From the NCBI GenBank assembly GCA_018661705.1, contig JABJHR010000003.1:601-64600 (forward strand): a stretch of 64,000 nucleotides of DNA, read 5' to 3'. Below, in pieces: positions 20,354 through 57,954 of the stretch; the stretch's first letter is position 1, and every line of letters begins with the position of its first letter. A program made the translations under genes and the position numbers. This stretch comes from Candidatus Woesearchaeota archaeon (lineage in GTDB: Archaea > Nanobdellota > Nanobdellia > Woesearchaeales > DSVV01). The notes beneath the pieces are model-generated. The model was not told the origin of the DNA and did not search any database. It saw only the letters and a list, made by a program, of their open reading frames with translations.

Positions 20354-20483
20354 CTTTTTTTGTTATTGAAAGTATATGTATAGTTAATTTTTTTAGATAT
20401 ATATAAATATATTGGTTATTTATACAATTAAACACCAAAACACCACAAATAATAAAAACCAGTAGTACGAAACAAGTATTAAT

Positions 20484-21161: not shown

Positions 21162-21205
21162 TTAGATTCTGATTTTTTATAGAACTTGTTTTTTAAAATT
21201 ATTTT

Positions 21206-25917: not shown

Positions 25918-27308
25918 GAAGCAACACCCACAATGTTCATGTTTGCACCATACATGTCTGGTTTCAAATATTTTTCAAGGTGTAATTTAAAACCAAGACC
26001 AATTGTTTGGTTCACACCAAAATTTAAACTTTCCATTGCCATTACCAACTCAGGTGTTACATTATAATATTCTGCACCAAGACTATATTGTAGGTTATTA
26101 TCATTAATTGCAAGATCACCACTATAAATACCATAACTTAAGTTTGTATTACCTAAATTTTTAATTGTTGGGCTAGTTGTAGTACTAAAATCTAAATCGC
26201 CATTAATTTCTGCAGTTTCTTTATTCTTTGCATTATCAAACACAAGAGATTCAGCATCAATATCAAAGGCAATTAATGGTAAATATTCCATTACAAAATT
26301 TTGTTCACTATTTTCACTACTTTTATCAGTAGCACTTAACAAAAGATTATAATCACCTGGCGCATTGTAATAATCAAAAAGAACATCTCCTGAAAATAAA
26401 ACCCAGTCAGTATTATTCTCAGTGTTTGTTAGTACTACTTCTTGCACATAATCTTGCGCCGTAATTAAAACTTTAACATTGTTAATATCAGAAACACCAT
26501 CATTATCTGCAACAACAACATTTAATGGAATTGTTTTTATTGCACCGGGTTCTGGTAATACTTGGTATCCTTCTTCTTCATTATCATCTACAGTGAGATT
26601 ATAGTTTAGAATAAGGGGAAGGGAATTAGTGAGATTAATAAACAAGGGTAGATCCACTTCAGAGTCATCTGTATCAGGATCTTCTTGTTCTTCCTCACCA
26701 CCATTCCCTTCATCTTCGGGATCACCCTGTGGGACTTCAACCACAGAACTAGAGTTGTGAAAATTAGGTTGAGAAATTATTAAGTCATTAAGATTATTGT
26801 CAGTATCTACAAAATTTAGTCTTGCTAAAACAAAACCAGAATCTGGATTATAAGCAGGTGTTGTTTCATATAATCCTGGTTCAATACTTTCAGTATCACC
26901 CCAACCAATTACATCAACAATAACATCTTCTGCAGTAATTAATGCTATACCAGAATTTGTATTATACATTGTTAGTGCTTCTTCATGGTCTGCATTTGGC
27001 CAAGATTCGTTATCTTTAAGAACACCCCAGCCATTATCAGCAATCAAATAATAACTATTTGCGCTGATAATGGCTCCATCTAATAAAGTCACATCACTAT
27101 TGCTACTTTCAGTTTTTATTTTGTATCCAGAAATATCAATCTCTGATGTCGTAGGATTGTATAATTCAATTGCTTCCCCACCTGCTTCAGTATCCACTGC
27201 ATCAACATAAACTTGATTAATAACAATATGTTCTGTTGCCATTGCTGAAATTGCAACTACAAGTATAAAAAAACCAATTATTGGTAATAATAAAACTATC
27301 TTTCTCAT
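25914..27308 (-). CDS. Secreted Lamin-tail-domain (LTD) protein.
   Basis: Signal peptide MRKIVLLLPIIGFFILVVAISAMA, then HIVINQVYVD ... GGEAIELYNPTTSEIDISGYKIK, the LTD signature (INE...E[FW]IELYN). The acidic linker is EEEQEDPDTDDSE. Confidence 0.6.
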   Translation of the reverse strand: MRKIVLLLPIIGFFILVVAISAMATEHIVINQVYVDAVDTEAGGEAIELYNPTTSEIDISGYKIKTESSNSDVTLLDGAIISANSYYLIADNGWGVLKDNESWPNADHEEALTMYNTNSGIALITAEDVIVDVIGWGDTESIEPGLYETTPAYNPDSGFVLARLNFVDTDNNLNDLIISQPNFHNSSSVVEVPQGDPEDEGNGGEEEQEDPDTDDSEVDLPLFINLTNSLPLILNYNLTVDDNEEEGYQVLPEPGAIKTIPLNVVVADNDGVSDINNVKVLITAQDYVQEVVLTNTENNTDWVLFSGDVLFDYYNAPGDYNLLLSATDKSSENSEQNFVMEYLPLIAFDIDAESLVFDNAKNKETAEINGDLDFSTTTSPTIKNLGNTNLSYGIYSGDLAINDNNLQYSLGAEYYNVTPELVMAMESLNFGVNQTIGLGFKLHLEKYLKPDMYGANMNIVGVAS

Positions 27309-38915: not shown

Positions 38916-40253
38916 TTATTTCATGCCAGCAACAATCGCATTCTTAAACAAGGCTATTTTTGGTCCTCTATAACCCTTAACTTCAATTATTTCTTTTGAT
39001 AGCCACATGTTTTCAATAATTTTAAACATATTACCAATGAACATTCCTCCTTTGAATGGTTTTCTAATTATTTTGCCTGCTTTATTTTTCTCACTAATGT
39101 AACCTAACCTAATTTCAGCAGAAAAGTCACCAGAAATACTGTTAGGAACAAAACTAGAGAATGAAACAATCTCTACTAGAGGTAATGTTTGTTTTAAATT
39201 TTTCATACTCTTCTTACCACCATTAACTTCAACTGCCCCTAGTGCCCCTGTTGCCGTTATTCCTAAATAATCAGCATATTGTTTTGAAGCAAACCAATTC
39301 TTAAAAATACCTTTTTCAATTAATTTAACTTTTTTAGAGATAACACCATCCCCATCAAACAAAGAAGAAGTTGGATTAAGTTTTAATAATGGATTTGTAG
39401 ATATAGAAATTTTATCTCCTTTAAAATTAGCAATTTTTTTCTTAGGAGAGTAAACACATAATCCCATTTGTTTTATTTTTGCAGATGCATGCATAACTAA
39501 AGGACTTAAACCCAAATGGGGTGCAAAAAAATCAGCAGCCGCATCATCTGTTAAGACCACATTTCCTTTAAAACTATTAATAAGATCTGAATTTAAAACA
39601 TCTTCTACAATATTAACATTTTCTTTTACAAATTCCTTTGCATTAAATTGAGATAATGACGCATGTTCTTTCATTGCAACAAATTCTTGTTCTTGAACTT
39701 TTCCATCTGCCTTTTTAGCAGTTGTTAATGTTAATTCAACATAAAAACTAGTTTTTTCCTCTTTAAGATCAACACCATTACTATTAATTACATTTAATTT
39801 GAGATATGATCCTTGGAGTTCGAGATTATTTGGCTTGACATTATACTTCTTCAAATTAGTTCTAATTCCATTAGCAATTTTTCTAAGATTTTTTAATGGA
39901 CTTATCAATTTTTTATCCACGAGAATTAATTTTTTGGGCTTAGACTTTAATTCTGATTTTGTAGGTAAAGAAAATTTAGGTTTTCGAGAATAATCACAAA
40001 TAACTAATGCATCATCAATCATTTTATTTATAGATTTTTCATTAAATTCAACGATACTAAAACTACTCTCACCAATTTCCTCCCCATAGTCTTTATATAC
40101 AACAATCTCAATAGAAAACCTATCACCAATTAATTCTGATTCTGATTCAAGATTTTTTGTAAAATATAAATCTGTACTCTTGGAACTAATTACTTCTATT
40201 TTCCATCCAAAAATTTTTCTTTTTTGAAGTAATTGTTTTATTTTATTAATCAT
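38916..40253 (-). CDS. PmbA/TldE-family metalloprotease component.
   Basis: Length, adjacency to TldD and overall TldD/PmbA-like composition without the HExxxH motif. Confidence 0.55.
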   Translation of the reverse strand: MINKIKQLLQKRKIFGWKIEVISSKSTDLYFTKNLESESELIGDRFSIEIVVYKDYGEEIGESSFSIVEFNEKSINKMIDDALVICDYSRKPKFSLPTKSELKSKPKKLILVDKKLISPLKNLRKIANGIRTNLKKYNVKPNNLELQGSYLKLNVINSNGVDLKEEKTSFYVELTLTTAKKADGKVQEQEFVAMKEHASLSQFNAKEFVKENVNIVEDVLNSDLINSFKGNVVLTDDAAADFFAPHLGLSPLVMHASAKIKQMGLCVYSPKKKIANFKGDKISISTNPLLKLNPTSSLFDGDGVISKKVKLIEKGIFKNWFASKQYADYLGITATGALGAVEVNGGKKSMKNLKQTLPLVEIVSFSSFVPNSISGDFSAEIRLGYISEKNKAGKIIRKPFKGGMFIGNMFKIIENMWLSKEIIEVKGYRGPKIALFKNAIVAGMK

Positions 40254-40281
40254 TTTATTCAGTTTAATTATTTATGATAAA

Positions 40282-41730
40282 TTAAGCTAAATCAACTTCC
40301 TTTATCAACAAGTGTGGTCCTCCTTCCGATACCCTTACCCATTCTTTATGGCCTTTACCACATCTTCCCGTTCCAGGAACAATTAATTTATCACTAACTG
40401 CTTTAATATTCTTAAGTATTGTTGGAAGATAACCCGTCATTCCAATTTCATAAAATAATTCACCAGTTAACTTTCCATTCTTAATTTTCTCAGCAACAAC
40501 TCCTTGAATTTGAACATGCCATCCTTTTGGATCTTCCATCCCACCAGAAGAATTGTGTAAATAAAGCCCATCTTTAATACTTTTAATCATTTTACTAAGT
40601 TTTGCTTTTCCTGGTGCAAAATAAGTATTACTCATTCTTGCATAAGATTTATGATCATAACTTTCTGCTCTTGCATTTGCAGATCTCTTAACATTAATAC
40701 CTTCCATGCAAAGCCTAGAAGCAGAATACATATCTGTTATAGGTGCTTTAACAATTCCTTTTTTAATTAAATATGTTGGAGAGGCCATAACACCCTCGTC
40801 GTCAAAGAAAAAACTACCATTTCTTGCAGGAAAGGCAGGATTATCAATAATTGAAACAAATTTGGGGGCAATTTGTTTACCTAAAAATTCTTTTGCTTTA
40901 GCACGATCCTTATAGAGTGTATCTGATTCCATACCATGTCCAAAACTTTCATGAGCTAATAACCCAGATAAATGTGGACTTAAAATACAAGTATATTTTC
41001 CAGGGGTTAATTTTTTTGCTTTAGCAATTTTATAAGTGGTGTTAATTAATTTTTTAATCTTTTGTAAAGGAATTTTCGTTACTTCATAACCAGAAGAAAA
41101 GAAACTCTTATAATTATATCTTGTGTTGCCATCAATTGCTTTAATAAATGGCAAAGTCATAAGAAAACAGCTATTAATATTTTGAGAAAGTTGTTTATAT
41201 TGGTTAACAAATATTTTTAATTCTTGTTCTTCCATATACAGAACACGTGCATTAATTATTTTCCCACCAAGAATTTGTTTTTGTAATTTATTCACGGTTT
41301 CTGCTTTCTTTCTGATACTTATTTTGCCAGGATCTAGTTTTCCTTTCACAAGAAAATGTTTATTAATCTTTTTTTTACAAATGTTTAATCTAATTTTATT
41401 CAATGCTTTAATTTTTGATAACTTAACAGCTTCTTTTTCTAATCTTGGCTTATCAAGACCACTCATCCCAAAAACATGAAACTGTTCTCCATCAAATAAT
41501 CTTAGCTTAACACCAAAATCCATACCATTATCAATATTAATATCAACATTATCCTTGGAGATTGTTAAAGAATTCTCCTTAATTAGCAAGACATCAGCAT
41601 AATTGTTATTTTTAGTCATAATTCTAACTAACTTAAGAAAAAACTGTTTTACACCTAAGACTTCCTTTTTATTCATAGTTACACACCAAGAAGGGAAGTT
41701 TATATATTTTGTTGTACAATTGTGTGACAT
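40282..41730 (-). CDS. tldD: TldD-family zinc metalloprotease.
   Basis: LLAHESFGHGMESD (HExxGHxxE) and a C-terminal GG..G...I motif. Confidence 0.75.
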   Translation of the reverse strand: MSHNCTTKYINFPSWCVTMNKKEVLGVKQFFLKLVRIMTKNNNYADVLLIKENSLTISKDNVDINIDNGMDFGVKLRLFDGEQFHVFGMSGLDKPRLEKEAVKLSKIKALNKIRLNICKKKINKHFLVKGKLDPGKISIRKKAETVNKLQKQILGGKIINARVLYMEEQELKIFVNQYKQLSQNINSCFLMTLPFIKAIDGNTRYNYKSFFSSGYEVTKIPLQKIKKLINTTYKIAKAKKLTPGKYTCILSPHLSGLLAHESFGHGMESDTLYKDRAKAKEFLGKQIAPKFVSIIDNPAFPARNGSFFFDDEGVMASPTYLIKKGIVKAPITDMYSASRLCMEGINVKRSANARAESYDHKSYARMSNTYFAPGKAKLSKMIKSIKDGLYLHNSSGGMEDPKGWHVQIQGVVAEKIKNGKLTGELFYEIGMTGYLPTILKNIKAVSDKLIVPGTGRCGKGHKEWVRVSEGGPHLLIKEVDLA

Positions 41731-45105: not shown

Positions 45106-45648
45106 ATGAAAACAAAAAGAGGTATGACTTTTATTAGTTGGATTGTGATTGCAATACTTTGTGTTGCGTTTATTATGTTTGCCCCAGTTATGGTTAACAA
45201 GGTATATGAATTAACAAAAAGGTTTGAACTACCTGATAATGCAGAACAAAATCTTCTTCAACACCAACAAGATCAAGAACAAAAAAGTAATGCAAAAAAA
45301 GCTTTTGAAGCAGGACAGTATAATGAAGCAACACAAGGTTATCAACAATTGATTGATAGAGATTCAAATGGAAAAGAAGTTCAAACATCGTTATTTGAAA
45401 TTGCTAAATCATTCTATGAAACAGATAAAAAAGATAAATCAATGATGTATTATAGATTATACGTCGATACTAGTCCAGGTTATAATTTTAAAGTTAAGAT
45501 TGCATATCAAGATTTATTATCAATTTACAAAGAAAAAGGTATGGGAACAGAAACAACTGCTTTATTAAATAAATTTAAAGAAACATACCCAGAAAGAGAA
45601 TTTGAATTTAATGAATTAAGTAAAAACATTCCAGGTGATGCAAAATGA
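45106..45648 (+). CDS. Class-III-signal-peptide (prepilin-like) protein with TPR-like repeats.
   Basis: MKTKRG|MTFISWIVIAILCVAFIMF is [KR][KR]G followed by a hydrophobic helix. AFEAGQYNEATQGYQQLI and FEIAKSFYETDKKDKSMMYYRLYV are TPR-like. Confidence 0.5.
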   Translation: MKTKRGMTFISWIVIAILCVAFIMFAPVMVNKVYELTKRFELPDNAEQNLLQHQQDQEQKSNAKKAFEAGQYNEATQGYQQLIDRDSNGKEVQTSLFEIAKSFYETDKKDKSMMYYRLYVDTSPGYNFKVKIAYQDLLSIYKEKGMGTETTALLNKFKETYPEREFEFNELSKNIPGDAK

Positions 45649-46034
45649 ATAGAATAATGAAGAAAAAAAACAATAAAGCTCAAGGTTTAAGCTTAAATAT
45701 GGTTGCTAGTTCAGTTATTGTTTTAGTTGTTATAATTGTTATTATTATTATTTTCACAGGCAAATTCTCATTATTTTCTGGAAGTATAAGTGCTTGTGAA
45801 TCAAAGCCAGGTGCAAAATGTGTTCAAGAAAATAATTGCCCAAGTACTGAAACAACACCCCATTATTTTTCACAAAAAATGGATTTTAAATGTCCAGATT
45901 CTAGCCAAGTTTGTTGTTATAGCCAATGTAAAGCAATTAGTGGAATTTGTAAACCAAGTTGTGGAAATCCAATAAATGATCAAGGACCAGCAGACTGTAA
46001 AGGAAATAATATCTGTTGTAAAGAAAGTTCATAA
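45645..46034 (+). CDS. Pilin-like protein with a 10-Cys C-terminal domain (paralog A).
   Basis: KKKNNKAQG|LSLNMVASSVIVLVVIIVIIIIF class-III-type N-terminus, then a SACESKPGAKCV ... CCYSQCKAISGICKPSCG Cys-rich module. Confidence 0.6.
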   Translation: MNRIMKKKNNKAQGLSLNMVASSVIVLVVIIVIIIIFTGKFSLFSGSISACESKPGAKCVQENNCPSTETTPHYFSQKMDFKCPDSSQVCCYSQCKAISGICKPSCGNPINDQGPADCKGNNICCKESS

Positions 46035-46042
46035 ACTAAACG

Positions 46043-46423
46043 GTGATAATAATGAATTTTAAAAAACAAAATAAAAAAGCACAAGGACTAAGCTTAAATA
46101 CGGTTGCAAGTGCAGTGATTGTTCTTGTAGTAATTATTGTAATCATAATTATTTTTACAGGTAAAGCATCACTTTTTTCAGGAAGCGTAAGTGCTTGTGA
46201 TTCAAAACCAGGTGCAAAATGTGTTCCAGAAACTGAATGTCCAAAAAAAGCTGACAATGTATTTTATTCACAGAAATTAGACTTTAAATGTGGAGATAAA
46301 GATCTTGTTTGTTGTTATAGCCAGTGTAAAGCAATCAGTGGGAAATGTGAACAAAAATGTAAACCAGATGATGATGATGTAGGTCCGGCAGATTGTATTG
46401 ATGGAGAAACATGTTGCAAATAG
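46043..46423 (+). CDS. Pilin-like protein with a 10-Cys C-terminal domain (paralog B).
   Basis: KKQNKKAQG|LSLNTVASAVIVLVVIIVIIIIF, with the Cys spacing conserved relative to paralog A (SACDSKPGAKCV ... CCYSQCKAISGKCEQKC). Confidence 0.6.
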   Translation: MIIMNFKKQNKKAQGLSLNTVASAVIVLVVIIVIIIIFTGKASLFSGSVSACDSKPGAKCVPETECPKKADNVFYSQKLDFKCGDKDLVCCYSQCKAISGKCEQKCKPDDDDVGPADCIDGETCCK

Positions 46424-46469
46424 GAATTAATCTTAATTTTTTTCAATAAAAATAATAACAGGTGAAAAC

Positions 46470-46760
46470 ATGTCAAAAAAAGCATTAAGTTTACCACAAA
46501 CCGCAATTGTAGTCTTTATTGTATTATTAGTTTTTTTAGGTTTAAGCCTTGTTTTTCAAGGAAAAGGGTATGCGTTTGTCCAAAAAAACATATTAGGGGC
46601 AGAAAAATGTATCACACCATTAGATTGTTCCACAAGCCTTAATCCAGGGGCTGGCGAAGATAATGACGGGAATGGAGTATATGATGGACAAATCACAACA
46701 AAAGAGGGTGTGGTTGATTGTGGTGCAGCAAATACTTGTATTATGGGAAACGCCCCTTAA
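46470..46760 (+). CDS. Small pilin-like secreted protein.
   Basis: MSKKA|LSLPQTAIVVFIVLLVFLGLSLVF, with 4 Cys in the mature part. Confidence 0.5.
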   Translation: MSKKALSLPQTAIVVFIVLLVFLGLSLVFQGKGYAFVQKNILGAEKCITPLDCSTSLNPGAGEDNDGNGVYDGQITTKEGVVDCGAANTCIMGNAP

Positions 46761-46852
46761 CAAACCCATGTAAAAAATTAAAGAACAAAAAACATTCAAA
46801 ATTTAATATTAAAATTTTCAATTAAAAAATAGAAAGTTAGTAAAAAAGTAAA

Positions 46853-49021
46853 ATGTTTAAAAAAAGAGGTACGATTGATATAGAATTCTTAGTTAATTTA
46901 ATTAGAGGTGTCTTGGTTTTATTTGTATTATTTATTATTGCAGCCTCTATTTACAGCATTTTTATTTCTGACAATAATCAAGAAAGAGTTTATGAAAATT
47001 TTTTAGGTTTTGTTGAAATTATTGAGTATATGCCACCAAACAGCCATTTAACATATGCACTTGATTTAGGTGATCCTGAACAATATTCTATTGTTGATAC
47101 AATTACTATGGGTGGACCAATAATTCCACAGGAAGAAACAAATGGTGAATGTAGATTTAAAGATTGTTTATGTTTGTGTGAGGGTGTTAGAAAAAATTGT
47201 GAAAATCCAAGATGTGTAAGAGTAACCTCAAAGATTGGTGCAAATATTGATGCAAATGAATTAGATTTACACCAATTTTGGTCCTCATCAAAAGATTATG
47301 TGGAAATAAATTATTCAGAAAAAGAAAAAGAAATGATCATGCCCGCAAGAGTATTACTAAGAAGAACAGGTAATGAAGTTGCGATTTGTAGATACATACC
47401 TGGGGAGCCGCAAGTTCATGATTCTTGTTTAAGAAGGTTTGATGCTTCAATTGCAGATAGAATGTTAGATGATCTTTCTCAATCATTAGAAAGGTGTGGA
47501 AAAAATAGTGCTGTTAGTAGTTTATTAACACCAATTATTGACGAAAAAACAAAACAACAAACATTTGTAGAAAATATTTATCAATTTGATTCTGATACAA
47601 ATCAAGTTTGTAGACTTGAGACACAAGAAGATAAATTAGAAAAATCAGATTGTCACAAATTAGATAAACAAATTATTCCTAAATGGAATTTAAAGAGTGA
47701 AGATGAAACATATGACACAAGAGAAAATTTAGGTTATATGTTTTTATACAAAACAGGCCCAGGTAGTAACTATATTGTAAATTGTGATGAGATAGAAGAT
47801 CCAAGTAAATTTAATGATTATTATGCGGAGATTAATACAGAAATAACCAATAATAAATATTCAGTAGGATCTGGTTTTTGTATTGATGGCGATACACAAC
47901 AATTTTTATCAACAGTTCAAGAATTTAACATTAATTTTGAAACACAATCTGCCCAGGGACCAGATGCAGACATAATTTGTTGTGAAACAGACATAGAAGA
48001 ATACTATAGTGAGGAGGAAAAAAGCTTTGGTTGTTTAGAATGGACAGACTTAAACAATTTAATGTGTTTAGATATCCCAACACCATACAAATCAAAATCA
48101 AACCCTGATTCAGTTCAATATTGGCAAGATCCTGAAACAAATAAAATTTCTCTAGCAATGAATTCTTGTTTAAATAACTTTAATATTCCAAATTCAGCAA
48201 TGTGTAAAGAGGAGTATGAAACAACACAATTATCCCAATTTCTAAACGAATTAAACAATAAAAATATTAAATTAAAAGCCTATCTCAGAGTTCATGATAA
48301 TAGCCAAGTATATTTTTCAAAAACAATTCCAATCAAAAGAATAATAAAAACTCCAGACGGTGAAGAACTAGATTATGAAACTAATAAAGAATTATTTTCA
48401 GAATCTGAAATTCAAGAGATAATTAAAATAGGTAATTTAAATGGCCTAGATTTAAAAGAATTAGAAATTTATTTTGATTCATACACTACAATTGATGAAG
48501 GAGATTATCTTTACCTCATGCCACAATTATTTGAAGATGAAAGTAATAAAAACATAAACAAGATTAGTTTAACAACAGGAGAGATAATGCCTTTGTATGA
48601 TGAAGAAGGTATGAAAACTAAACAACAAGTATTTATTAAAGAAGAAATTCAAGATTTAATTAAAACACAAGGAAATGTGATTTGTAGGGAAGAAATTGAA
48701 AACACTTTACCTGCAGAAGCAATAAACACAGAAACTGGAGAGATTGAAATTAGTGCAACAGGTTATAGCCTAGTTATTGAAAAAAATAAAGCATATATTG
48801 AATATGAGGGAGTTAAAGGAACAGATATTGTTTTACCAACAAATCTTGATTGTGTAATTTATACCTTTGCTCCTGGCAGTAATGAAGAATATAAGTTTGA
48901 GTCAAATGCTCCAAGAATTACAATAACACCCGCTGACCAAAACCCAAATCCTGAAATAGTTGATATTGGAATAGGAGAACCTTGTTTATGGCTAAAAAAG
49001 CCACATATTGAATTTAAATAA
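46853..49021 (+). CDS. Large (722 aa) pilin-like / pseudopilin protein, Cys- and acidic-rich.
   Basis: MFKKRG|TIDIEFLVNLIRGVLVLFVLFII is a canonical prepilin-type motif (Gly, Glu at +5, then a hydrophobic helix). Confidence 0.55.
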   Translation: MFKKRGTIDIEFLVNLIRGVLVLFVLFIIAASIYSIFISDNNQERVYENFLGFVEIIEYMPPNSHLTYALDLGDPEQYSIVDTITMGGPIIPQEETNGECRFKDCLCLCEGVRKNCENPRCVRVTSKIGANIDANELDLHQFWSSSKDYVEINYSEKEKEMIMPARVLLRRTGNEVAICRYIPGEPQVHDSCLRRFDASIADRMLDDLSQSLERCGKNSAVSSLLTPIIDEKTKQQTFVENIYQFDSDTNQVCRLETQEDKLEKSDCHKLDKQIIPKWNLKSEDETYDTRENLGYMFLYKTGPGSNYIVNCDEIEDPSKFNDYYAEINTEITNNKYSVGSGFCIDGDTQQFLSTVQEFNINFETQSAQGPDADIICCETDIEEYYSEEEKSFGCLEWTDLNNLMCLDIPTPYKSKSNPDSVQYWQDPETNKISLAMNSCLNNFNIPNSAMCKEEYETTQLSQFLNELNNKNIKLKAYLRVHDNSQVYFSKTIPIKRIIKTPDGEELDYETNKELFSESEIQEIIKIGNLNGLDLKELEIYFDSYTTIDEGDYLYLMPQLFEDESNKNINKISLTTGEIMPLYDEEGMKTKQQVFIKEEIQDLIKTQGNVICREEIENTLPAEAINTETGEIEISATGYSLVIEKNKAYIEYEGVKGTDIVLPTNLDCVIYTFAPGSNEEYKFESNAPRITITPADQNPNPEIVDIGIGEPCLWLKKPHIEFK

Positions 49022-49205
49022 CCCCTGATACATTTTATGCATTATTTAATTCACTAAATTTTATGTTTATTAATAAAGATCTTTTCTTTTAATAAGATTA
49101 TAGCATATAGTTATATTACCATTATACTCTTATATCATTATAATGTATTTTACTCTTAAAGACATGAAAAACTATATAAATCTATAAATTAATTGATTTA
49201 TATAC

Positions 49206-50330
49206 ATGTTTAAAAATAAAAGGGGTATTACACTAGATAAAGTCTTTTTAGTAGAAGCTATACTCATTGTAGTTGTATGTGCCTCCATCATGGTTTACAT
49301 TGGAAATTTATATAATGATACTTCATTTGACAAAAGAATAATTGCAAGAGATCTTGCATTTTTAGCTGATTCTGCTCAATCTGTCCCGGGAAATTTATAT
49401 TACGAATATACATCTCCCTTGGGTAAAAAAGATCATTCATTTATTTTTTCAAAAAACACCGCAATAATTGCAGAAGGTTGGTTCGCAAAGGTGGGATATC
49501 CTTTTTTCTATAACAAAAACATGATGTTTGAGTCATTTCCAATTGCTTTCAAGAAAAGTTTTTCTATTAGTAATTTTAATAATGTTTTAGTAATATCTCC
49601 TGAAAAAAGATTTGGGTTAAAACAACCAAAAGATCAATTTTATGTGGAAACTCCTTCACAAACATATGAGATAAGTGAAACTAAACAAGTTGCTGAACAA
49701 ACATTAGAATGCACACCACCAAAACTAGAAACTAAATTTACATTTGACATAATTGCTATTGATGCTGATGGAAATTCAGATACACCAAAACAAAACATTG
49801 CGGGAACACAAGTAGAGCATTTAATAACACATGATATTTCAAAAGCAATAATAGAAGAATTAAACATAATTTTAGAAGGCATTATTATTGAAACAAGACC
49901 AGAAATAGATACAACATACGATACAGAATCAAAATTACTTCTTATTCCACCTTCAACAAGTTTTATTTTACAAATAAGTACTGAACAAACACAAAATCAA
50001 AACAATAATCCAGTATATGCTTATATTCCAAAGAATAGTGAACTAAGCAATTACCTTGCTTGCACCATATTACAAAATTTGAAAAAAGAATTGCCAGAAG
50101 TAATCACGGAAACAAAGATATTAACACAGAACCAAGAAGATAATTTATTGTTATATGCAAATAAAGATCCAACTGGTGTAAATACAAATAAACAAAATTT
50201 AGCTATAAAAATTGGAATAGGAAACATCCTGCATGATAATAATCTATTATATGAAAAAGAAACCACGAATATAATTGCTTATTCAATAGCTCAAAGTATT
50301 GAAGAATTTCAAGAATCAATTAACAACTAA
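49206..50330 (+). CDS. Pilin-like protein (374 aa).
   Basis: MFKNKRG|ITLDKVFLVEAILIVVVCASIMVYI. Confidence 0.5.
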   Translation: MFKNKRGITLDKVFLVEAILIVVVCASIMVYIGNLYNDTSFDKRIIARDLAFLADSAQSVPGNLYYEYTSPLGKKDHSFIFSKNTAIIAEGWFAKVGYPFFYNKNMMFESFPIAFKKSFSISNFNNVLVISPEKRFGLKQPKDQFYVETPSQTYEISETKQVAEQTLECTPPKLETKFTFDIIAIDADGNSDTPKQNIAGTQVEHLITHDISKAIIEELNIILEGIIIETRPEIDTTYDTESKLLLIPPSTSFILQISTEQTQNQNNNPVYAYIPKNSELSNYLACTILQNLKKELPEVITETKILTQNQEDNLLLYANKDPTGVNTNKQNLAIKIGIGNILHDNNLLYEKETTNIIAYSIAQSIEEFQESINN

Positions 50331-50355
50331 AAAAGTTTGGGAGACACAACATAAG

Positions 50356-50955
50356 ATGAACAAAGTTAAAATAAATAAAAAAATTGGAAAAATAGGGAAA
50401 AAATCACAATTAGCATACTTCCAACTAATGTTTTTGTTCATAAGAATTGCGGTTCTTTTATTGGTATTATTTTCAATTGTTATACTTGTTCATATGTTCA
50501 TAAATGAGAGTACAAATATACAAAAAGAGGAAATCAACATGTTTACAGAGTTTTTATTATACTCTAAACACGGACTAAGCCATTACGACAAACAAGCAGG
50601 TAGACTTTACCCTGGAATTTTAGATTATGCAGAGTTAACTAACACAGGTTTAATTCAAGCAAAATTAGATTATGCTTTTGATTATGGAGATTACAAAGTA
50701 ATGGCAATTAAATTTAAATTTAACAGTTTAGTACCAGAAGTATCCGAAATCCAAGAATTTTATTATAATAAAGAGAGATATGATGAGTGGTTACATTTAA
50801 CAGGACTTAAAGCACGAATCACAAAACAGTTTGTTACAAAAAAACAAAGAACTGTTAATGTTATCATCAGAAAAGAAATTGAAATAGAAGGAATAATTAA
50901 AGAACAGTTTTTCCCTACAAAATTAGAATTAACAATGCTAAGCCCAAACACATAA
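50356..50955 (+). CDS. Pilin-like protein.
   Basis: MNKVKINKKIGKIGKKS|QLAYFQLMFLFIRIAVLLLVLF. The start is placed at the internal ATG (50356) just after the upstream stop. Confidence 0.45.
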   Translation: MNKVKINKKIGKIGKKSQLAYFQLMFLFIRIAVLLLVLFSIVILVHMFINESTNIQKEEINMFTEFLLYSKHGLSHYDKQAGRLYPGILDYAELTNTGLIQAKLDYAFDYGDYKVMAIKFKFNSLVPEVSEIQEFYYNKERYDEWLHLTGLKARITKQFVTKKQRTVNVIIRKEIEIEGIIKEQFFPTKLELTMLSPNT

Positions 50956-50967
50956 GAGAATTAAAAA

Positions 50968-51507
50968 ATGATAAAAAACAAAAAAGCACAAGAAACAATT
51001 ACAACAGATGCAATAGTTACACTTTTAATTGTTGTAGTGATTACTATGAGCTTTTTTTATGTAAATCTATTACCACATAACAAAGTAGAGAATAAAATTG
51101 AAGCCGATTATGAGGATTTAGAATCAAGAAGAGAATTATTTACATTACTAAAAACCCCATTAGACACACCATTTGAATCAGACTACGGAAATTCAGCAGA
51201 TAATAACTTTGCAAGCCTAATTGTTAAGTATCATCATTCTGAAGGTGATGTAAAACAAGAGTATAAAACAAAAGTTCAAGAATTCATTAAATCCTATACT
51301 CAAGAAAAAAGTCTTTGCTTTAATTTAGTAATAAGTGCAGATAATGATTATGAAACAGAGTTTATTGGTGATAATTCCATTTGTACAGAATATTATTTAG
51401 ATTATATTTCCATAAATGAACTTATTGCACATTTACCAACATTAGACTCAGAAAAAACAATCATGGTTGAAATGATGAAAACTAGATTTAAGGTTTGGGA
51501 AGGCTAG
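50968..51507 (+). CDS. Pilin-like protein.
   Basis: MIKNKKA|QETITTDAIVTLLIVVVITMSFFYV. Confidence 0.5.
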   Translation: MIKNKKAQETITTDAIVTLLIVVVITMSFFYVNLLPHNKVENKIEADYEDLESRRELFTLLKTPLDTPFESDYGNSADNNFASLIVKYHHSEGDVKQEYKTKVQEFIKSYTQEKSLCFNLVISADNDYETEFIGDNSICTEYYLDYISINELIAHLPTLDSEKTIMVEMMKTRFKVWEG

Positions 51508-51531: not shown

Positions 51532-52851
51532 ATGAAAAAAATAAAAACAAACACCAAAATTTGGAAAAACAAAAAAGCAGCACACGTGTTTATGTTAATC
51601 TTATTAGGAATTACAATAATTGCATTTGCATCACTAATAGGAATTTTAAACATAAAATTAGGGCACGTAAAGCCTCTTGGTGAAGCCCCAATAACAATTT
51701 TCAAGGCTGTTCATGAGGGAGAGGATATATTAAATTATGTTGATGAAGGGGCAAAACATGCCGTAAGACAAGCAGAGTTTGACCTTGCAATGCAAGGCGG
51801 CGTATTAACATCTGGTTGTGGAAATCTAAACGGAATTAATTATTGGTATAAAGATGGGAAATTATGCATGCCAAAACAATACAAAGAAGATTTTAAGCAG
51901 ATTTTGTCTCAAAACTTGAATGTTGGTTATTACATTAAAACATCTGGATTAGACATTCCAACAAATAACTATGAAATAAAAATTCTCCCAAACAAAGTCT
52001 TAGGATTGGCAAAAAAAGAAATTGTTATTGATGGAACAAGAGTAGAAGTTCCGACAACTTTTAGTTATAATGTAGAATCCACTAATGCAGCAATAGAAAA
52101 AGATAAATTAGAGCAAACAAAAACACCTTCAAGCAATTTAATAACTGAAAATAAAGAACAAGGTAAAGAGAATATTATTTTACTGGGACAAGAATGCCAA
52201 ATCACTAATTTTATTTTAGATTCTGAATCATTATGGTATAACAATGCAGGGGGCATTAAAAATGCTGCAATGATTGAGGAATCAACTGAATATTACTACA
52301 ATCCAAATTATCATCGTAACAAGTTTTATGGTACAATAGAAATGGTAAATATGCTAGAAAAAGCAAGCTGCATTACAAAAGAACTTACAGGAGCAAGAAC
52401 TAGAATACACGATCTTAGCGCAAAGCAAGGAGGAAAAATTGGTCACAGATCACATCAAAACGGAAGAGATGTTGATACAGGTATTTTAAAAAACAGTGGT
52501 GGAAAAATCACATCTGTATTTAAAAATTTAAATGGTTCTAAAATAGATCTTTTTGATGCAAAAGCAAACTGGATATTCCTTAAAGCAATTTATTTATCTG
52601 CAAATATTGAAATGATAGGAACAGACAAAGAATTTATTGATAAGCTAAAATCATATACAGAACAAAATGAACCAGATAAAGAACTTGCAGCTAATATCAT
52701 TAAAAAATTATCTTATTGGAAGGGTCATGCAGATCATTACCACATTAGAATTTATTGTAGCCCAGAAGATAAAATGTGCAAAGACGGGTCTGCTAAAAGC
52801 TCAGAAAAAGCATACTGGAAAAACCAAGTAGAGGAGTATTTGGAAACATGA
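51532..52851 (+). CDS. Membrane-anchored LAS-family zinc peptidase, a homolog of MepA (peptidase M74, penicillin-insensitive murein DD-endopeptidase).
   Basis: IGHRSHQNGRDVD (SHQ.G.DVD zinc-ligand motif) and GHADHYHIRIY (H.DH.HVR motif), the two MepA/LAS signatures. N-terminus KNKKAAH|VFMLILLGITIIAFASLIGIL. Confidence 0.6.
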   Translation: MKKIKTNTKIWKNKKAAHVFMLILLGITIIAFASLIGILNIKLGHVKPLGEAPITIFKAVHEGEDILNYVDEGAKHAVRQAEFDLAMQGGVLTSGCGNLNGINYWYKDGKLCMPKQYKEDFKQILSQNLNVGYYIKTSGLDIPTNNYEIKILPNKVLGLAKKEIVIDGTRVEVPTTFSYNVESTNAAIEKDKLEQTKTPSSNLITENKEQGKENIILLGQECQITNFILDSESLWYNNAGGIKNAAMIEESTEYYYNPNYHRNKFYGTIEMVNMLEKASCITKELTGARTRIHDLSAKQGGKIGHRSHQNGRDVDTGILKNSGGKITSVFKNLNGSKIDLFDAKANWIFLKAIYLSANIEMIGTDKEFIDKLKSYTEQNEPDKELAANIIKKLSYWKGHADHYHIRIYCSPEDKMCKDGSAKSSEKAYWKNQVEEYLET

Positions 52852-54080
52852 GAAAAACCAAGTTTAAAACATTAGTTCAAACAATATTGGCATGCGTATT
52901 ACTCACAATGTTAATGTTTGTAGTTTCAACTACTATTTTTGGCGAAGAAATCATGTATATTGAAATCAATGAAGAAGACAACCTAAAAACCCTTAAAATC
53001 CTCGATGACTCAAATTTATTTTACTTATTTGGAGAGGATGAAGAAATTTACATAGGGGAGTTAGGAGAAGAAAGTTCATTAGAAAAGAAATTTATTGTTG
53101 AAGTAACAGATCAATTCAAAAAAACAATTTTAAAAGAAGAATTTAGTGATACAACAATATATATCCCTTACAACAAGAATATAAGACACATAAAAGCCTC
53201 AACATTTGGCCCTCAAATTCAAGAGAAGATAATAATAAACAAGGAATTCAATTTTTGTAACCAAAATAACATTTGTGAACCGTGTTTTGATAAAACCTGG
53301 TGTGAAGTAATGGAAAACTTTGTTTCTTGCCCAGAAGATTGTAATTCTGGCAGTAACGATAATTATTGTGATTTAGAACAAGATAGTGTATGTGATCCTG
53401 ACTGTATTAACACAAATGAAAATAATGTTGACAAAGACTGTGAATCCTGCCAAATATCTGATTATACCTTAGAAGGATATGAAAACATAGAAGAATTACA
53501 GGAAGAAACAAACAAACAAGAAATAACTCAAAGTAAAACATGCTATTACAACAATCTTAATCATCATTGTATGTTTGAATATAATGGTGTAAAATGCAAT
53601 AAAAAACAACATTGTTCAAATGGGGAATGGATTACACTTGAGGACAATACCGCATGTTGCTTAGAAGGATACTGTTTAGATGATGAAATACTAGCAATAA
53701 ACACACTAGAAGAAGAAAATTCATATCCTGCTGAAAAAAAAATAGAACCAACCATTAATATTGAAAAATATAAAGATTTTGGAACAGAACAAAAAGATTA
53801 TATTGGAACAATTATTTTATTTAGTATAATTATTTTGATAATTATAATAACTGGAACCCTGTTATTGTTTTATGAAATTAAAAAATCTAATGGTCATCAA
53901 GCTTCACCAGTGAAAAATAAATTACGGGCAAATGAATTAATCAGAACAATAAATGAATTACATTCCAAAGGAATGAATTATTCTAAAATTAAACAACATT
54001 TGATTAGAAGAGGATATTATGAAGAAGAAATAGATAATTACCTAAATCATCATCATTCTTCAAATAAAAATCACAATTAA
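52848..54080 (+). CDS. Type-I membrane protein with an extracellular Cys-rich acidic domain.
   Basis: N-terminal signal anchor, Cys-rich middle (CEPCFDKTWCEVMENFVSCPEDC ...), a TM near residue 330 (IGTIILFSIIILIIIITGTLLLF), and a basic/His-rich tail. 4-nt overlap with the upstream gene. Confidence 0.5.
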   Translation: MRKTKFKTLVQTILACVLLTMLMFVVSTTIFGEEIMYIEINEEDNLKTLKILDDSNLFYLFGEDEEIYIGELGEESSLEKKFIVEVTDQFKKTILKEEFSDTTIYIPYNKNIRHIKASTFGPQIQEKIIINKEFNFCNQNNICEPCFDKTWCEVMENFVSCPEDCNSGSNDNYCDLEQDSVCDPDCINTNENNVDKDCESCQISDYTLEGYENIEELQEETNKQEITQSKTCYYNNLNHHCMFEYNGVKCNKKQHCSNGEWITLEDNTACCLEGYCLDDEILAINTLEEENSYPAEKKIEPTINIEKYKDFGTEQKDYIGTIILFSIIILIIIITGTLLLFYEIKKSNGHQASPVKNKLRANELIRTINELHSKGMNYSKIKQHLIRRGYYEEEIDNYLNHHHSSNKNHN

Positions 54081-54111: not shown

Positions 54112-57100
54112 ATGAAAAAACAAAAAATAAAATTAGAAGGCAAGCAGTTATTTGTTATAGCCTTAATTGCAATTTTCATAGTTGCCAGCATATTATTTTT
54201 AAGTGATTCAACAACAAATGTAGATAAAAATCTTATTGGAAAAGCCACCACTACCCAAAATCAATATCCGGAAGATTATAAAGTCGTGTTTCTTTCTGAC
54301 ACACATGTATCATTAAATGGTGGAGTTAGACAAGACTTTAAAGATGCTGTACAAGCCACACTAAAATTAAATCCAAATATGGTTGTAGTATTAGGTGATA
54401 TGGTTAATGGTGGAAGAAGTTCAACAAGCACAATAAAAATTCAATCTGCATGGGAGAAGTTTGATGAAACAATACTGCCTTTAATAGATGCAGGCATTGC
54501 CGTATTTCCTGTTGTTGGAAATCATGATGCCGCTTATACAGATGAACTAGAACAAGGTTACAAAAAACATTGGCAATCATACACAACCCCAATATCATTA
54601 AAAAGTGGAGTTATGAATAATTATTATAGTTTTGAATATAGTGGGGATTTACATATTGTGCTTTATGTTCCAAACAGAATAAAACATGATAAGCAACAAT
54701 TAAATTGGTTAGATGAACAATTAACACAAGCACATACATTAAATCAATTAACAAATGAAAAACCGTATAGAAATGTTTTCTTATACACTCACAAACCAAT
54801 TATAACAATTAGTCCGCAATCAAGCCAACTTTATACCAAAGAGTTAGGAGAGATTATTAAAAATAGAATTTCTGCTGTTTTTTCTGGCCATGATCATGTT
54901 GTTGGGGTAACAATTATTGCAGATACAAACGTCCCACAATTTATTATTGGAACAACAAGTGGTGCCCTTGGAAGAAGAAACAGCGATGGTGTTTTAAAAC
55001 CATACACTGATTTAGAAGGAAACTCATACCAAAATACCTTTGGGTATATGGAGATTAACTCTCAAGGCTACCAAGTTACAAATATAGAAGAACCATTTGA
55101 TCAATTAACATCAGCAATAGGTTATACACCAGGAATTCCACAACCAAAAGATTGTAAGGACATGATTGGTTATGAACACATGCCAAAAATTCCAGAAGTT
55201 GATAAATTTGATAATGAATTTTTTGAAGAGTATATGAAAAAGATTTCTGAATATGAACCATACATACAAGAATTATATGAAAATGAGAAATATCAAATTA
55301 GACCCGAATTAATTAAAGCAATTATGGTTCCTGAAAGCAGAGGTAATGTGTATAGAAATAAAAAATACAAAAAAATTGATAATGCTGGCAATAAAATTGA
55401 ACCAACTGCAAAAGTATTATGCAACGGTAGGTGCAAACAGTGTAATTTTTGTGGGGGTCCAGGTGATGCTGAATTGTGCATGGAAAACAGCAAAGAATGT
55501 ATTTATTATGATAAAAACACATGGGAAAAAAGCATTAGTTCTTCTTGTGGTTTCTGTAGTTTGATGCAAACTAACATAGGCAAATGTGAAGACGTAGAAG
55601 AATGTGATGTAGAAAGATTCCTTGCAGGAAATCCCAGAGATGCAATTTTCTCTTCTGCAAAGTACATAAAAATGATTATGCAATCTTACAAGAACACAGT
55701 AAAAACAGTAACAAATAATAAACTTCCAGAACACAATTATTATTGGGCAATTGGTTTTGCTTACAACAATGGCCCCGGTAGTTTAAAAGTTGCAATTAAA
55801 GAGATTACTAAAAACAAATATGGGGGAGATTATTCTAGATTTAATTGGTGGGAATTAACAAAAGAGGATTTTGAACCAATCATGCAACATTTTTCACCAC
55901 ATGTTTCTGTAAAAGATCCCCTTGGCAGAGTTTTGTATGCGTTGCGTGTACTAAAAATTCTTCAACACCAAAACTTTAAAGATTGCGGACAACCAAATGC
56001 AAATTTTAAATCAATAACAGAAACAACAACAAAAGAATTAAGTACACCAGATACTATCTACATGGATATTGAAGATCAATTTGTTTATCAAGTAGATCCC
56101 AGCTTTAGTATTCCTTTAACACATGATCTTGACGTATATGTAAGATTAAGAGAAAAAGTATTTTTAATTGCAAAAGAAGTGGAAGATTGTCATGAAAGTG
56201 AAAAATATTTGGTAGAGGTTATTAGTAAAAACACATATGATAAATGCATGACAAAAGTCATTTCAAATAATGCAGAAATAAACTTACCGCCAAAATTAAA
56301 ATTAGAAATATGTGAAACACATGACACCATTCCAAATTATGGTTTATGTTTTGAATCAAAAGAGAAAGTATTTGTGAAAACCAAAGACAAATACTCAATA
56401 CAACAATTAACATACAAGATAGCATTAGGTTTTGATATACCAGAACTAAAAAACAAGGAAATTAAGAATAAAGAAATAAAAATACAAGGAGCCCAAACAC
56501 AGTACGCAAGTGGCGATACAATAAATTACGACGACAAGATTTCATTTACTGAAACAACCCACAATAATAAAGAGACATTAATTATTTCATTAGATCCTAA
56601 ACATTTTGACATAAAAGTAGAAAGTGCAAAAACAATTACAGGGAATCAAAAAGCAACACTAAAAGAAATGGTTGAGAAAACGGGTGCAATTGCAGCCATC
56701 ACTGGTGGTTTTTTTAATGTAAACACTGCAGAAGCAGGTAAAAAATGTTCAAGACCAGAAAAACGAAGTGAACCACTTGGATTGGTTGTTGAAAATTCCA
56801 ATACTTTAAGTGAAATGTTTAATATGGATTGGGATTGTCATTTAATGCAACAAGGAACAATTGATCCGCACCATATTTTTGTTGTTGATAAAGAATCACC
56901 AGATGAATTTATAATTGAGAGAGAAGAATATAACACAAACTATTTTGACTCAAACACTCCCAATTATGCGCTTCAATCTGGAGCATTAATTTATAATAAT
57001 GAACTTTTGGAATGTCCGTTCTCTAAGTCTTTTTGTACATCTTCACCAAAAAGAACTCTTCTTTGTATTACAACAGACAATAAAATAAAATTAATGGTGT

Positions 57101-57954
57101 TTCAATCATTAGCTTTAACAAAACTTCCATCTTGGATAATTGAAGATTGTAAAGATTTACTTAATTTAGATGGTGGTGGTTCAACATCCATGGAATACAG
57201 GCAAGGAGAGTATCATTCTGTACAATGGGAACACAATAAATATGAAGATGGCCAATTAGTAAAAAAGAAAGAAAATCATTTTACAACACAATCAACAACA
57301 GATGGGGGAAGATCTATTGTTAATGGAATATTTATTTATCCAAAAAAAGAACAAAACAAAGATTCAGAATCTACAACAACTTCTGAAGAAAGAAAGATTG
57401 CTGTTTTTGGTGGTTCAGTTGTAGCTCAAGCCACAAGTAATGACAATTCTGTAGAGGACTTTATTACAAGATTAAATACAAAAAACATTGGTGAAATAAC
57501 GGGATATGGTGACTATATTGTTGAGAGCGGCGATATAAAATCAACATTATTAACAACACTAGATCAAAATCCCGATAATGAATATCATGAAATTTTAATT
57601 TTAGCTGAATCAGATAATGTTTGTGAAAGCTGGGAAATAGTTAAAGAAGATTTACAAGATATGTACACTTATGCTAAGAAATCTAAAAATCTGCGTGTTG
57701 GAGCATTAACTGCGTTACCATTTAAAGGACATTTCTCTTGGAAACCAAAATGTCAAGAAGGCCTTGAAGCTTTAAACAACTGGATAATGCAAGAAGCAAT
57801 TGATGTTGATTTTAGAGTAGATCTTTATACAAAACTAGTAGATCCAAATGATAACCAAAAAATAGCTGATTCTTTAACAGTAGATTTTTATCATCCTAAC
57901 AGTTTAGGACATGAAAGAATTACTGATGAAATTCTTCTAATAGGTTATTCATAA
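54112..57954 (+). CDS. Giant (1280 aa) membrane-anchored multidomain cell-wall hydrolase: metallophosphoesterase, SLT lytic transglycosylase, DUF2233/phosphodiester-glycosidase-like and SGNH esterase.
   Basis: N-terminal TM (LFVIALIAIFIVASILFL). Phosphoesterase motifs VVFLSDTHV, VLGDMVNGG, GNHD, GHDH. SLT motifs AIMVPES...GFCSLMQ...FAYNNGPG (ES / LMQ / AYNxGPG) with a Cys-rich insertion. AAITGGFFN...NLDGGGSTS (DUF2233 LDGGGS motif). C-terminal SGNH: IAVFGGS ... FYHPNSLGHERI (GDS-like block I and DxxH-like block V). Confidence 0.6.
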   Translation: MKKQKIKLEGKQLFVIALIAIFIVASILFLSDSTTNVDKNLIGKATTTQNQYPEDYKVVFLSDTHVSLNGGVRQDFKDAVQATLKLNPNMVVVLGDMVNGGRSSTSTIKIQSAWEKFDETILPLIDAGIAVFPVVGNHDAAYTDELEQGYKKHWQSYTTPISLKSGVMNNYYSFEYSGDLHIVLYVPNRIKHDKQQLNWLDEQLTQAHTLNQLTNEKPYRNVFLYTHKPIITISPQSSQLYTKELGEIIKNRISAVFSGHDHVVGVTIIADTNVPQFIIGTTSGALGRRNSDGVLKPYTDLEGNSYQNTFGYMEINSQGYQVTNIEEPFDQLTSAIGYTPGIPQPKDCKDMIGYEHMPKIPEVDKFDNEFFEEYMKKISEYEPYIQELYENEKYQIRPELIKAIMVPESRGNVYRNKKYKKIDNAGNKIEPTAKVLCNGRCKQCNFCGGPGDAELCMENSKECIYYDKNTWEKSISSSCGFCSLMQTNIGKCEDVEECDVERFLAGNPRDAIFSSAKYIKMIMQSYKNTVKTVTNNKLPEHNYYWAIGFAYNNGPGSLKVAIKEITKNKYGGDYSRFNWWELTKEDFEPIMQHFSPHVSVKDPLGRVLYALRVLKILQHQNFKDCGQPNANFKSITETTTKELSTPDTIYMDIEDQFVYQVDPSFSIPLTHDLDVYVRLREKVFLIAKEVEDCHESEKYLVEVISKNTYDKCMTKVISNNAEINLPPKLKLEICETHDTIPNYGLCFESKEKVFVKTKDKYSIQQLTYKIALGFDIPELKNKEIKNKEIKIQGAQTQYASGDTINYDDKISFTETTHNNKETLIISLDPKHFDIKVESAKTITGNQKATLKEMVEKTGAIAAITGGFFNVNTAEAGKKCSRPEKRSEPLGLVVENSNTLSEMFNMDWDCHLMQQGTIDPHHIFVVDKESPDEFIIEREEYNTNYFDSNTPNYALQSGALIYNNELLECPFSKSFCTSSPKRTLLCITTDNKIKLMVFQSLALTKLPSWIIEDCKDLLNLDGGGSTSMEYRQGEYHSVQWEHNKYEDGQLVKKKENHFTTQSTTDGGRSIVNGIFIYPKKEQNKDSESTTTSEERKIAVFGGSVVAQATSNDNSVEDFITRLNTKNIGEITGYGDYIVESGDIKSTLLTTLDQNPDNEYHEILILAESDNVCESWEIVKEDLQDMYTYAKKSKNLRVGALTALPFKGHFSWKPKCQEGLEALNNWIMQEAIDVDFRVDLYTKLVDPNDNQKIADSLTVDFYHPNSLGHERITDEILLIGYS

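Follow-up and report, generated by a model that had tools for sequence, protein, structure and literature searches.

The stretch of DNA analysed here, a 64,000-nucleotide segment of a contig from Candidatus Woesearchaeota (hereafter the window), belongs to a peptidoglycan-less DPANN archaeon, has a guanine-cytosine (GC) content of about 29%, and carries a gene coding for a 1280-residue protein. Downstream of a single membrane helix, this protein consists, from the N- to the C-terminus, of a metallophosphoesterase (MPE) module, an SLT-type transglycosylase module, a central domain, a NAGPA-type (DUF2233) phosphodiester glycosidase module and an SGNH esterase module (Table 1). An open frame of 3.8 kb in DNA of such a low GC content places the open reading frame (ORF) far from chance expectation, and both the GC content and the GC content at third codon positions (GC3) are even across all of the modules. 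A Kyte-Doolittle scan of the whole protein detected no second segment above 1.6 and, since the sole helix is an N-terminal signal-anchor, the ectodomain is predicted to occur outside the cell. The 24 cysteines of the protein are all located C-terminal to the membrane helix, and the whole fits a signal-anchored, extracellular and disulfide-bonded protein. A preliminary description, made from the letters of the DNA, had proposed a single polypeptide fusing four cell-wall-modifying catalytic modules. The gene was confirmed as one ORF, all of the motifs quoted in that description were recovered in place, and the four domain assignments hold, three of them above the Pfam threshold and the SGNH module by homology.

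Table 1. Features of the 1280-residue protein gene and of the genes located upstream (window coordinates)
Feature	Position (nt)	Strand	Residues	Basis or remark
Complete ORF, predicted multi-module extracellular enzyme	54112..57954	+	1280 codons	ATG start
Sole hydrophobic helix, N-terminal signal-anchor	54145..54204	+	~12-31	Kyte-Doolittle scan
Calcineurin-like metallophosphoesterase module	54280..55101	+	57-330	Pfam and metal ligands
Family-1 lytic transglycosylase (SLT/GH23) module	55225..55971	+	~372-620	Pfam, motifs
Cys-rich insertion in the SLT domain	55357..55533	+	416-474 (59 residues)	Pattern CNGxCxxCxFCGGxG...C...C
Conserved central domain	55972..56529	+	621-806	Opens with the motif F-V-Y-Q-V-x-P-S-F-S
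NAGPA/DUF2233 phosphodiester glycosidase module	56530..57345	+	807-1078	Pfam, nine-homologue alignment
Divergent SGNH/GDSL esterase module	57379..57951	+	1090-1280	Homologue alignments, PDB 7TOJ
Upstream run of one TPR protein, two small paralogues (Cys-rich, pilin-like) and four further proteins with a pilin-like N-terminus	45106..51507	+		Translations
Membrane-anchored Peptidase_M74 (MepA-like murein endopeptidase)	51532..52851	+		Pfam E 1.8e-16; two genes upstream
Cys-rich protein with hydrophobic segments at both termini	52848..54080	+	410 aa	Its start shares 4 nt with the end of the M74 gene

Catalytic modules and central domain

The SLT core is assigned, by its profile matches and alignments, to the family-1 lytic transglycosylases with intact catalytic motifs. 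The SLT profile (PF01464) matches the whole protein with 25.1 bits and the excised region, in two stretches, with 30.3 bits, against a cut-off of 21.3. The motifs PESRG, LMQ (S483-LMQ) and AYNNGPG start at residues 407, 484 and 550, respectively, and include the catalytic pair E408-S409. In a ten-member SLT profile, Glu408 aligns with the catalytic Glu of Escherichia coli MltC (a Gln in the inactive-mutant entry 4cfo) and AYNNGPG with the AYNGGAG of MltC. The catalytic Glu is kept in all nine aligned homologues, and the module displays a goose-lysozyme-like alpha-helical fold. A profile was necessary for these comparisons, as a phmmer search of the PDB with the SLT module alone yielded no match, and a Foldseek search with a model of the SLT module plus central domain yielded none either.

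After the catalytic Glu, the SLT domain accommodates a Cys-rich insertion, which is modelled with low to moderate confidence as small beta hairpins. The ten cysteines attributed to this insertion in the preliminary description do occur, within residues 437-498, but only six of them (437-463) belong to the insertion proper; the other four (Cys479, Cys482, Cys492 and Cys498), distributed around LMQ, are part of the conserved SLT core of the family. Among the homologous proteins, designated P00xx in the following, the insertion is present in P0004, P0011, P0030 and P0036, short in P0007, P0008, P0009 and P0012, and absent from P0003. The region following the SLT module, which gave no match in a Pfam scan of residues 621-806, is 36-44% identical in the orthologues, with a conserved x-P-S-F motif at its opening, and is a separate conserved domain distinct from all four modules.

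The MPE module possesses all five metal-binding motifs of the calcineurin-like family (DxH, GD, GNH[DE], H and GHxH). The Metallophos profile (PF00149) matches residues 57-263 (E 3e-18, 67.3 bits versus a cut-off of 21.5), with SDTH starting at residue 62 (nt 54295), GDMVNGG at 95, GNHD at 136 and GHDH at 259, and an alignment of 30 sequences shows no or hardly any variation in the metal ligands D63/H65, D96, N137/H138, H227 and H260/H262. The AlphaFold2 (AF2) model, with a predicted local distance difference test score (pLDDT) of 84 and a predicted template modelling score of 0.87, exhibits the beta-alpha-beta-alpha-beta sandwich of the family. Searched alone with phmmer against the PDB, the module returned nothing more than noise; the matches came with the 30-sequence profile, for which purple acid phosphatases score best (E 1e-21), followed by Rv0805, GpdQ, acid-sphingomyelinase-like enzymes and Mre11. 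The closest relatives comprise purple acid phosphatases, Lmo2642, Rv0805, GpdQ and PhoD. A purple acid phosphatase sensu stricto was rejected owing to a missing metal ligand, the Tyr of the GDxxY motif of the true enzymes, in place of which the module reads G95-D-M-V-N99. According to these comparisons, the module is assigned as a purple acid phosphatase-like phosphomonoesterase or phosphodiesterase. Because Mre11 and the 5'-nucleotidases score below purple acid phosphatases, Rv0805 and GpdQ, a nuclease or nucleotidase is not the first choice, though a possible one.

The NAGPA profile (PF09992) matches residues 858-1075 over profile positions 2-168 of 169 (E 3e-12, 47.3 bits versus a cut-off of 25), and the alignment of homologues places the beginning of the domain near residue 807, upstream of the Pfam envelope. 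The motifs AAITGGFFN (residue 861) and NLDGGGSTS (residue 1018) are both present and the catalytic D1020-GGG-S1024 is intact. This DGGGS motif is invariant in the nine aligned homologues (9/9), and human NAGPA requires both it and its Asp (PMC13474241). A phmmer search of the PDB with the module alone gave no match. The module shares PF09992 and the invariant DGGGS with bacterial DUF2233 proteins and with human NAGPA, the uncovering enzyme; the human enzyme acts on the N-acetylglucosamine (GlcNAc)-1-phosphate-6-mannose of lysosomal enzymes.

The C-terminal SGNH module scores below the Lipase_GDSL_2 (PF13472) cut-off (16.4-19.4 bits versus 32.9). Despite this, the assignment is real, since it is supported by three kinds of homology. 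With the Woesearchaeota protein P0003, which is itself above the GDSL cut-off, residues 1040-1279 share 33% identity (E 6e-33); dozens of canonical homologues of the GDSIT type match the module with E values of 1e-15 to 1e-22; and the solved SGNH esterase of PDB entry 7TOJ matches it with an E value of 7.5e-4, blocks III and V being aligned. Of the solved relatives, carbohydrate acetyl-esterases are the nearest. The motifs FGGS and HPNSLGHE start at residues 1099 and 1261. The blocks, read from an alignment used for its SGNH columns only, its NAGPA rows being mis-aligned (A2), and from another with rows concatenated from different proteins (A3), comprise Ser1102 (block I), Gly1140 (block II), E1166-S-D-N1169 (block III) and Asp1258/His1261 (block V). 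The Ser1102/Asp1258/His1261 triad is kept, block V (D1258-F-Y-H1261) is intact, and the catalytic Ser and His are conserved in the homologues.

Integrity of the gene, relatives and locus

When the whole protein was used in a word-indexed homology search, nothing but the protein itself was retrieved, and the close database relatives correspond to just two pieces of the same gene, from the NCBI assembly GCA_018698995.1 (Candidatus Woesearchaeota). In that assembly, contig JABIPR010000055.1 stops at residue 1023, residues 1-1023 being identical to an NCBI "transglycosylase SLT domain-containing protein, partial", and residues 1027-1280 correspond to MBT6040708.1, annotated "SGNH/GDSL hydrolase", on a second contig. 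The break (window 57178-57190, residues 1023-1027) falls within the NAGPA motif NLDGGG|STS, and the join present in the window gives NLDGGGSTSxEY, the consensus of the family in the homologue alignment. On one side of the break, the MPE, SLT and central domains and the N-terminus of NAGPA occur uninterrupted on a 47.6-kb NCBI contig; on the other side, MBT6040708.1 holds the C-terminus of NAGPA and the SGNH module within one ORF. Since the break lies inside a conserved motif and the join restores the family consensus, the four modules belong to one gene and their fusion is no product of assembly. As GCA_018698995.1 lists the gene as two unrelated proteins, surveys of domain architecture based on that assembly would overlook the fusion. 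Two short contigs of about 1.1 kb from ENA carry parts of the SGNH module in another context: P0016 consists of the N-terminus of ribosomal protein L2 followed by 47 residues (1121-1167) of the module, and P0002 consists of residues 1078-1280 preceded by "MSL", a foreign start. Mis-assembly of short contigs is the likely origin of both.

Among 1.84 billion cluster representatives, scanned exhaustively with HMMER, 421 proteins matched at E<=1e-3, and none of the 421 combines all four modules. Partial combinations recur in different forms, e.g., MPE with two NAGPA modules and SLT in P0007 (Woesearchaeota, PIN86129.1), MPE with NAGPA and SLT in P0008, NAGPA with SLT in P0012, and NAGPA with MPE in P0005. 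P0009 (MFC1731647.1, 1633 aa) associates MPE and NAGPA with a Glucosaminidase, an SLT-like and a Peptidase_C39_2 domain; P0025 and P0021 associate MPE and SGNH with M15_4, M23 and NlpC/P60 or C39_2 domains; and the SGNH module of P0032 and P0013 (about 2,800 aa) stands beside an Amidase_2 or 3D domain. Depending on the relative, the order of the modules varies. P0007, P0008, P0009, P0021 and P0025 contain the same MPE, NAGPA, SLT and SGNH subfamilies as the window protein, with 24-42% identity per module, and their MPE is usually N-terminal after the transmembrane anchor, as in the window protein, but they differ from it in module order and content, and none possesses all four modules. MPE, NAGPA and SGNH are, in the architectures compared, swappable add-ons on a core made of the SLT module and the central domain. 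Their recurrent fusion to peptidoglycan hydrolases (M23, M15, NlpC/P60, Amidase_2, glucosaminidase and 3D partners) is the strongest evidence suggesting that the three are directed towards the wall. The named sources of the relatives are Woesearchaeota or Nanoarchaeota, plus one bin labelled "candidate division KSB1 bacterium"; this bin is the source of P0009, which leaves two options, a mis-binned contig or the presence of the module set in bacteria as well.

The gene is the last of a same-strand run comprising the TPR protein, the pilin-like genes, the M74 peptidase and the 410-residue Cys-rich protein, and is directly followed by a gene for an RPA-type single-stranded DNA-binding protein. 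This neighbour, the GC content and the NCBI records naming Woesearchaeota mark the window as archaeal. The order of the genes is shared with three other Woesearchaeota genomes (loci L002, L003 and L004, retrieved with a three-sequence alignment, A4), in which the locus ends with the same RPA (75% identity) and YdjM (63-69%) genes. The 410-residue protein occupies the same position in all three loci, with 30-34% identity. The peptidases share an N-terminal domain (about 170-200 residues, 40-45% identity) to which exchanged catalytic domains are attached: the peptidase of the window carries M74, that of L003 (6332-8578) PGA_cap together with M74, and those of L002 (7421-8572) and L004 (5249-6418) M15_4. 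The syntenic SLT proteins, of 482, 813 and 957 residues, share with the window protein only the SLT plus central core, and one of the three adds an SGNH module.

The upstream genes are called pilin-like here by their N-terminal pattern and a sub-threshold Pilin_N match only. Two tandem paralogues of about 127 residues (45645-46034 and 46043-46423, +) start with KKAQGLSLN and a hydrophobic helix, followed by a Cys-rich C-terminal half, and match Pilin_N weakly (E 0.023, below threshold). The four genes at 46853-51507 (+) encode proteins of 722, 374, 218 and 179 residues whose N-termini show K/R-G/A ahead of a long hydrophobic helix. None of these four has a Pfam match, and all four have syntenic homologues in the three loci, that of the 374-residue protein reaching 871 residues in L003. 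In L003 (genome SI047_bin3), a subtilase of 1261 residues (Peptidase_S8, E 9e-47) is encoded at 17502-21287 (+), at a distance of some 5 kb downstream from the SLT locus.

Proposed role on the bacterial wall

We consider, with a probability of roughly 60%, that the protein is a membrane-anchored extracellular multi-enzyme by which a DPANN archaeon acts on the wall of a bacterial host or prey, its accessory modules clearing C6 of N-acetylmuramic acid (MurNAc). Because the host archaeon makes no peptidoglycan, the target is probably the bacterial wall. The domains, the intact motifs (SGNH blocks I and III excepted), the topology by hydropathy, the archaeal genome, the conserved locus and the recurrent fusion to peptidoglycan hydrolases are observed, and it is from them that we infer the substrates, the order of action and the role in host attack. 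The toolkit to open a bacterial sacculus suggested in the preliminary description gains strength from the lack of peptidoglycan in the archaeon, from the murein endopeptidase encoded two genes upstream and from the fusion of the accessory subfamilies to peptidoglycan hydrolases.

Lytic transglycosylases require a free C6-hydroxyl group on MurNAc as the nucleophile, and the same C6 oxygen is occupied both by O-acetyl groups and by the GlcNAc-1-phosphate linkage units of wall teichoic acids. The SLT core would cut the MurNAc-(beta1,4)-GlcNAc linkage via the attack of this hydroxyl on C1, and the SGNH module would take 6-O-acetyl groups off MurNAc. The NAGPA module would split the GlcNAc-1-phosphate linkage unit tying teichoic acids or other secondary polymers to O6 of MurNAc; the bond in question, GlcNAc-alpha-1-P-6-sugar, is the one cut by the human homologue, and its cleavage would leave a 6-phosphate. 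The purple acid phosphatase-like MPE could strip the phosphate left on O6, or break down the freed polyol-phosphate. It may act as a monoesterase that completes what NAGPA begins, and not as the second diesterase supposed in the preliminary description. The adjoining murein endopeptidase would cut the peptide cross-links, and the pilin-like genes upstream would provide the contact apparatus.

A stricter version, in which NAGPA, MPE and SGNH free O6 of MurNAc and the SLT core then forms 1,6-anhydro-MurNAc on protected walls, so that the protein would be a self-contained C6-deblocking lytic transglycosylase, is offered tentatively and is rather improbable as a whole. Should it be true, it would provide the first defined wall substrate for prokaryotic DUF2233/NAGPA domains, and DPANN archaea would own a dedicated machinery, encoded in a pilus-associated locus, against decorated walls of the Gram-positive type.

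Several observations weigh against the proposal of a wall-opening enzyme. A Pfam scan of the protein found no recognised peptidoglycan-binding domain (LysM, SPOR, PG_binding). The fold neighbours of the MPE include monoesterases and also diesterases of the cyclic-nucleotide, glycerophospho- and sphingomyelin types, so that the substrate is not fixed by the fold, and the module lacks the Tyr ligand mentioned above. The AF2 model of the SLT module plus central domain is of low confidence (mean pLDDT 60, with 60-85 in the SLT part). MPE and NAGPA are lacking in all three syntenic orthologues (3/3) and are therefore dispensable for the function of the locus. Finally, the active site of the SGNH module is deviant: block I reads G-G-S, the Asp of GDS being lost, and block III, instead of the GxND motif (GGVND/N in the homologues), reads E1166-S-D-N1169 with its Asn shifted by one position, whereas almost all of the homologues retain both GDSIT and GxND.

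These deviations leave the activity of the SGNH module plausible yet uncertain, and the enzyme may be weak or inactive. The catalytic triad and the acetyl-esterase relatives still speak in favour of the de-O-acetylation initially suggested for it, the GGS and ESDN sequences against. If the module, and possibly the central domain too, were a pseudo-enzyme retained for carbohydrate binding or targeting, the protein would display two or three activities only. The loss of the block I Asp, the replacement of both Gly and Asn in block III and the sub-threshold Pfam score all suit this idea; on the other hand, Ser1102, Asp1258 and His1261 are all present, Asn1169, one position past the usual oxyanion Asn, could take its place, and block I of the orthologous P0003 is likewise non-canonical (GTS) next to a normal block III. 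A pseudo-enzyme is accordingly a possibility of some weight, but an improbable one.

A slightly less probable alternative is the scavenging of necromass. Without acting on a living host, the protein would digest nucleotides, teichoic acids, phospholipid head groups or loose wall debris from the environment and thereby supply a metabolically reduced archaeon with amino sugars, acetate and phosphate. This alternative agrees with the broad-specificity phosphatases and diesterases (purple acid phosphatases, PhoD, GpdQ, Lmo2642) found as closest folds of the MPE, with the auxotrophy of DPANN genomes and their salvage of cell components (PMC9723730), and with the lack of any peptidoglycan-binding or toxin-delivery domain in the Pfam scan. 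The transmembrane anchor, which tethers the enzyme to the cell, and the conserved locus with its pilin-like surface genes fit a contact-dependent action better than the digestion of dispersed debris. Scavenging and attack are not mutually exclusive and both readings can hold.

It is quite unlikely that the locus is self-directed, remodelling the envelope of the archaeon itself or making way for a pilus-like appendage of its own. The gene is co-oriented with and near the pilin-like genes, and specialised lytic transglycosylases accompany pilus and secretion loci in bacteria, but murein-type walls are absent in archaea outside Methanobacteria and Methanopyri, the window contains no murein synthesis genes, and the M74/M15 peptidases, NAGPA and SLT are all directed at wall chemistry of the bacterial type. 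The least probable explanation by far, an assembly artefact joining two genes into a chimera, could appeal to the interruption at residue 1023 in GCA_018698995.1 and to the chimeric SGNH pieces on the short ENA contigs, and is rejected because the join restores the consensus of the NAGPA catalytic motif, the fragments on either side of the break span borders between modules, and the GC and GC3 values are uniform.

Comparison with known systems and other genes of the window

Large SLT proteins of DPANN archaea are said to have been first noted in AR20 and by Rinke in 2013. Large extracellular proteins with SLT domains typify the Woese- and Pacearchaeota with small genomes and are suggested to attach to the walls of bacteria or break them down (PMC8204110), and GH23 genes have been used as an argument for a predatory lifestyle (Vigneron et al. 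2022, PMC9723730). The window protein displays the features that define this class (Woesearchaeota origin, SLT domain, large size, one transmembrane segment), the comparison being based on these features; with the fam00969 SLT proteins of Castelle 2021 (PMC8204110) it has in common the lineage, the SLT/GH23 domain, the large size, the predicted extracellular location and the proposed wall role. These two papers report the SLT domain only, whereas the protein described here is resolved into a conserved SLT plus central core with three accessory catalytic modules and a Cys-rich insertion, and is encoded in a syntenic locus with pilin-like genes, a murein peptidase and a Cys-rich membrane protein. 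The earlier statement that no protein with this architecture has been described therefore holds, by the HMMER scan, for the exact combination of four modules, but not for the class, which is already published.

Compared with the GH23 enzymes MltC, EmtA (MltE) and Slt70, the window protein is archaeal and only 16-20% identical, possesses the 59-residue Cys insertion after the catalytic Glu and additional conserved cysteines near LMQ, and is fused to three further catalytic modules. NAGPA domains also occur together with TelC and NlpC/P60 domains in conflict proteins of Bacillota (Lipocone paper, 10.1101/2025.01.14.632903), which share with the window protein the association of NAGPA with wall-targeting modules in proteins of inter-organism conflict. 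Killing of bacteria has been shown for modular archaeal peptidoglycan hydrolases (Strock et al. 2025, PMC12352652), which resemble the window protein in being archaeal, secreted or surface-exposed, peptidoglycan-directed and built from shuffled domains. That survey demanded a recognised cell-wall-binding domain and studied haloarchaeal M23 enzymes; since the window protein has no such domain, the filter would miss it. Neither the four-activity architecture nor an SLT plus central core with swappable modules was found in PMC8204110, PMC9723730, PMC12352652 or 10.1101/2025.01.14.632903, and the recurrent partnership of MPE, NAGPA and SGNH with hydrolases and the locus of pilin-like and murein-peptidase genes were not found in these four papers either.

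With regard to the hosts of Woesearchaeota, a surface-exposed set of wall enzymes argues for bacterial partners or prey, and its conserved locus offers concrete genes in this respect. That classical hydrolases are recurrently fused to NAGPA and to a single subfamily each of MPE and SGNH suggests an action of these modules on the decorations of the wall, and points to a substrate for the DUF2233 domains of bacteria and archaea. Multi-activity lysins devoid of recognised wall-binding domains escape the surveys that require such domains, and represent candidate antibacterial enzymes.

Among the other genes of the window, a minus-strand open frame of 1234 codons or more (positions 1-3740) runs past its left end and displays a K-rich start followed by a hydrophobic N-terminus (KTKMKQRINKTTGVGFILLVLIVAVVF...). 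The GC content of this region is 0.36, versus about 0.29 for the window, its GC skew is strongly negative, and the frame probably encodes another giant surface protein. A 464-residue protein carrying a lamin-tail domain is encoded at 25914-27308 (-), a DNA gyrase A subunit of the bacterial type (E 7e-171) at 34426-37044 (+), and an adjacent pair of TldD/PmbA-like metallopeptidases at 38916-41730 (-).

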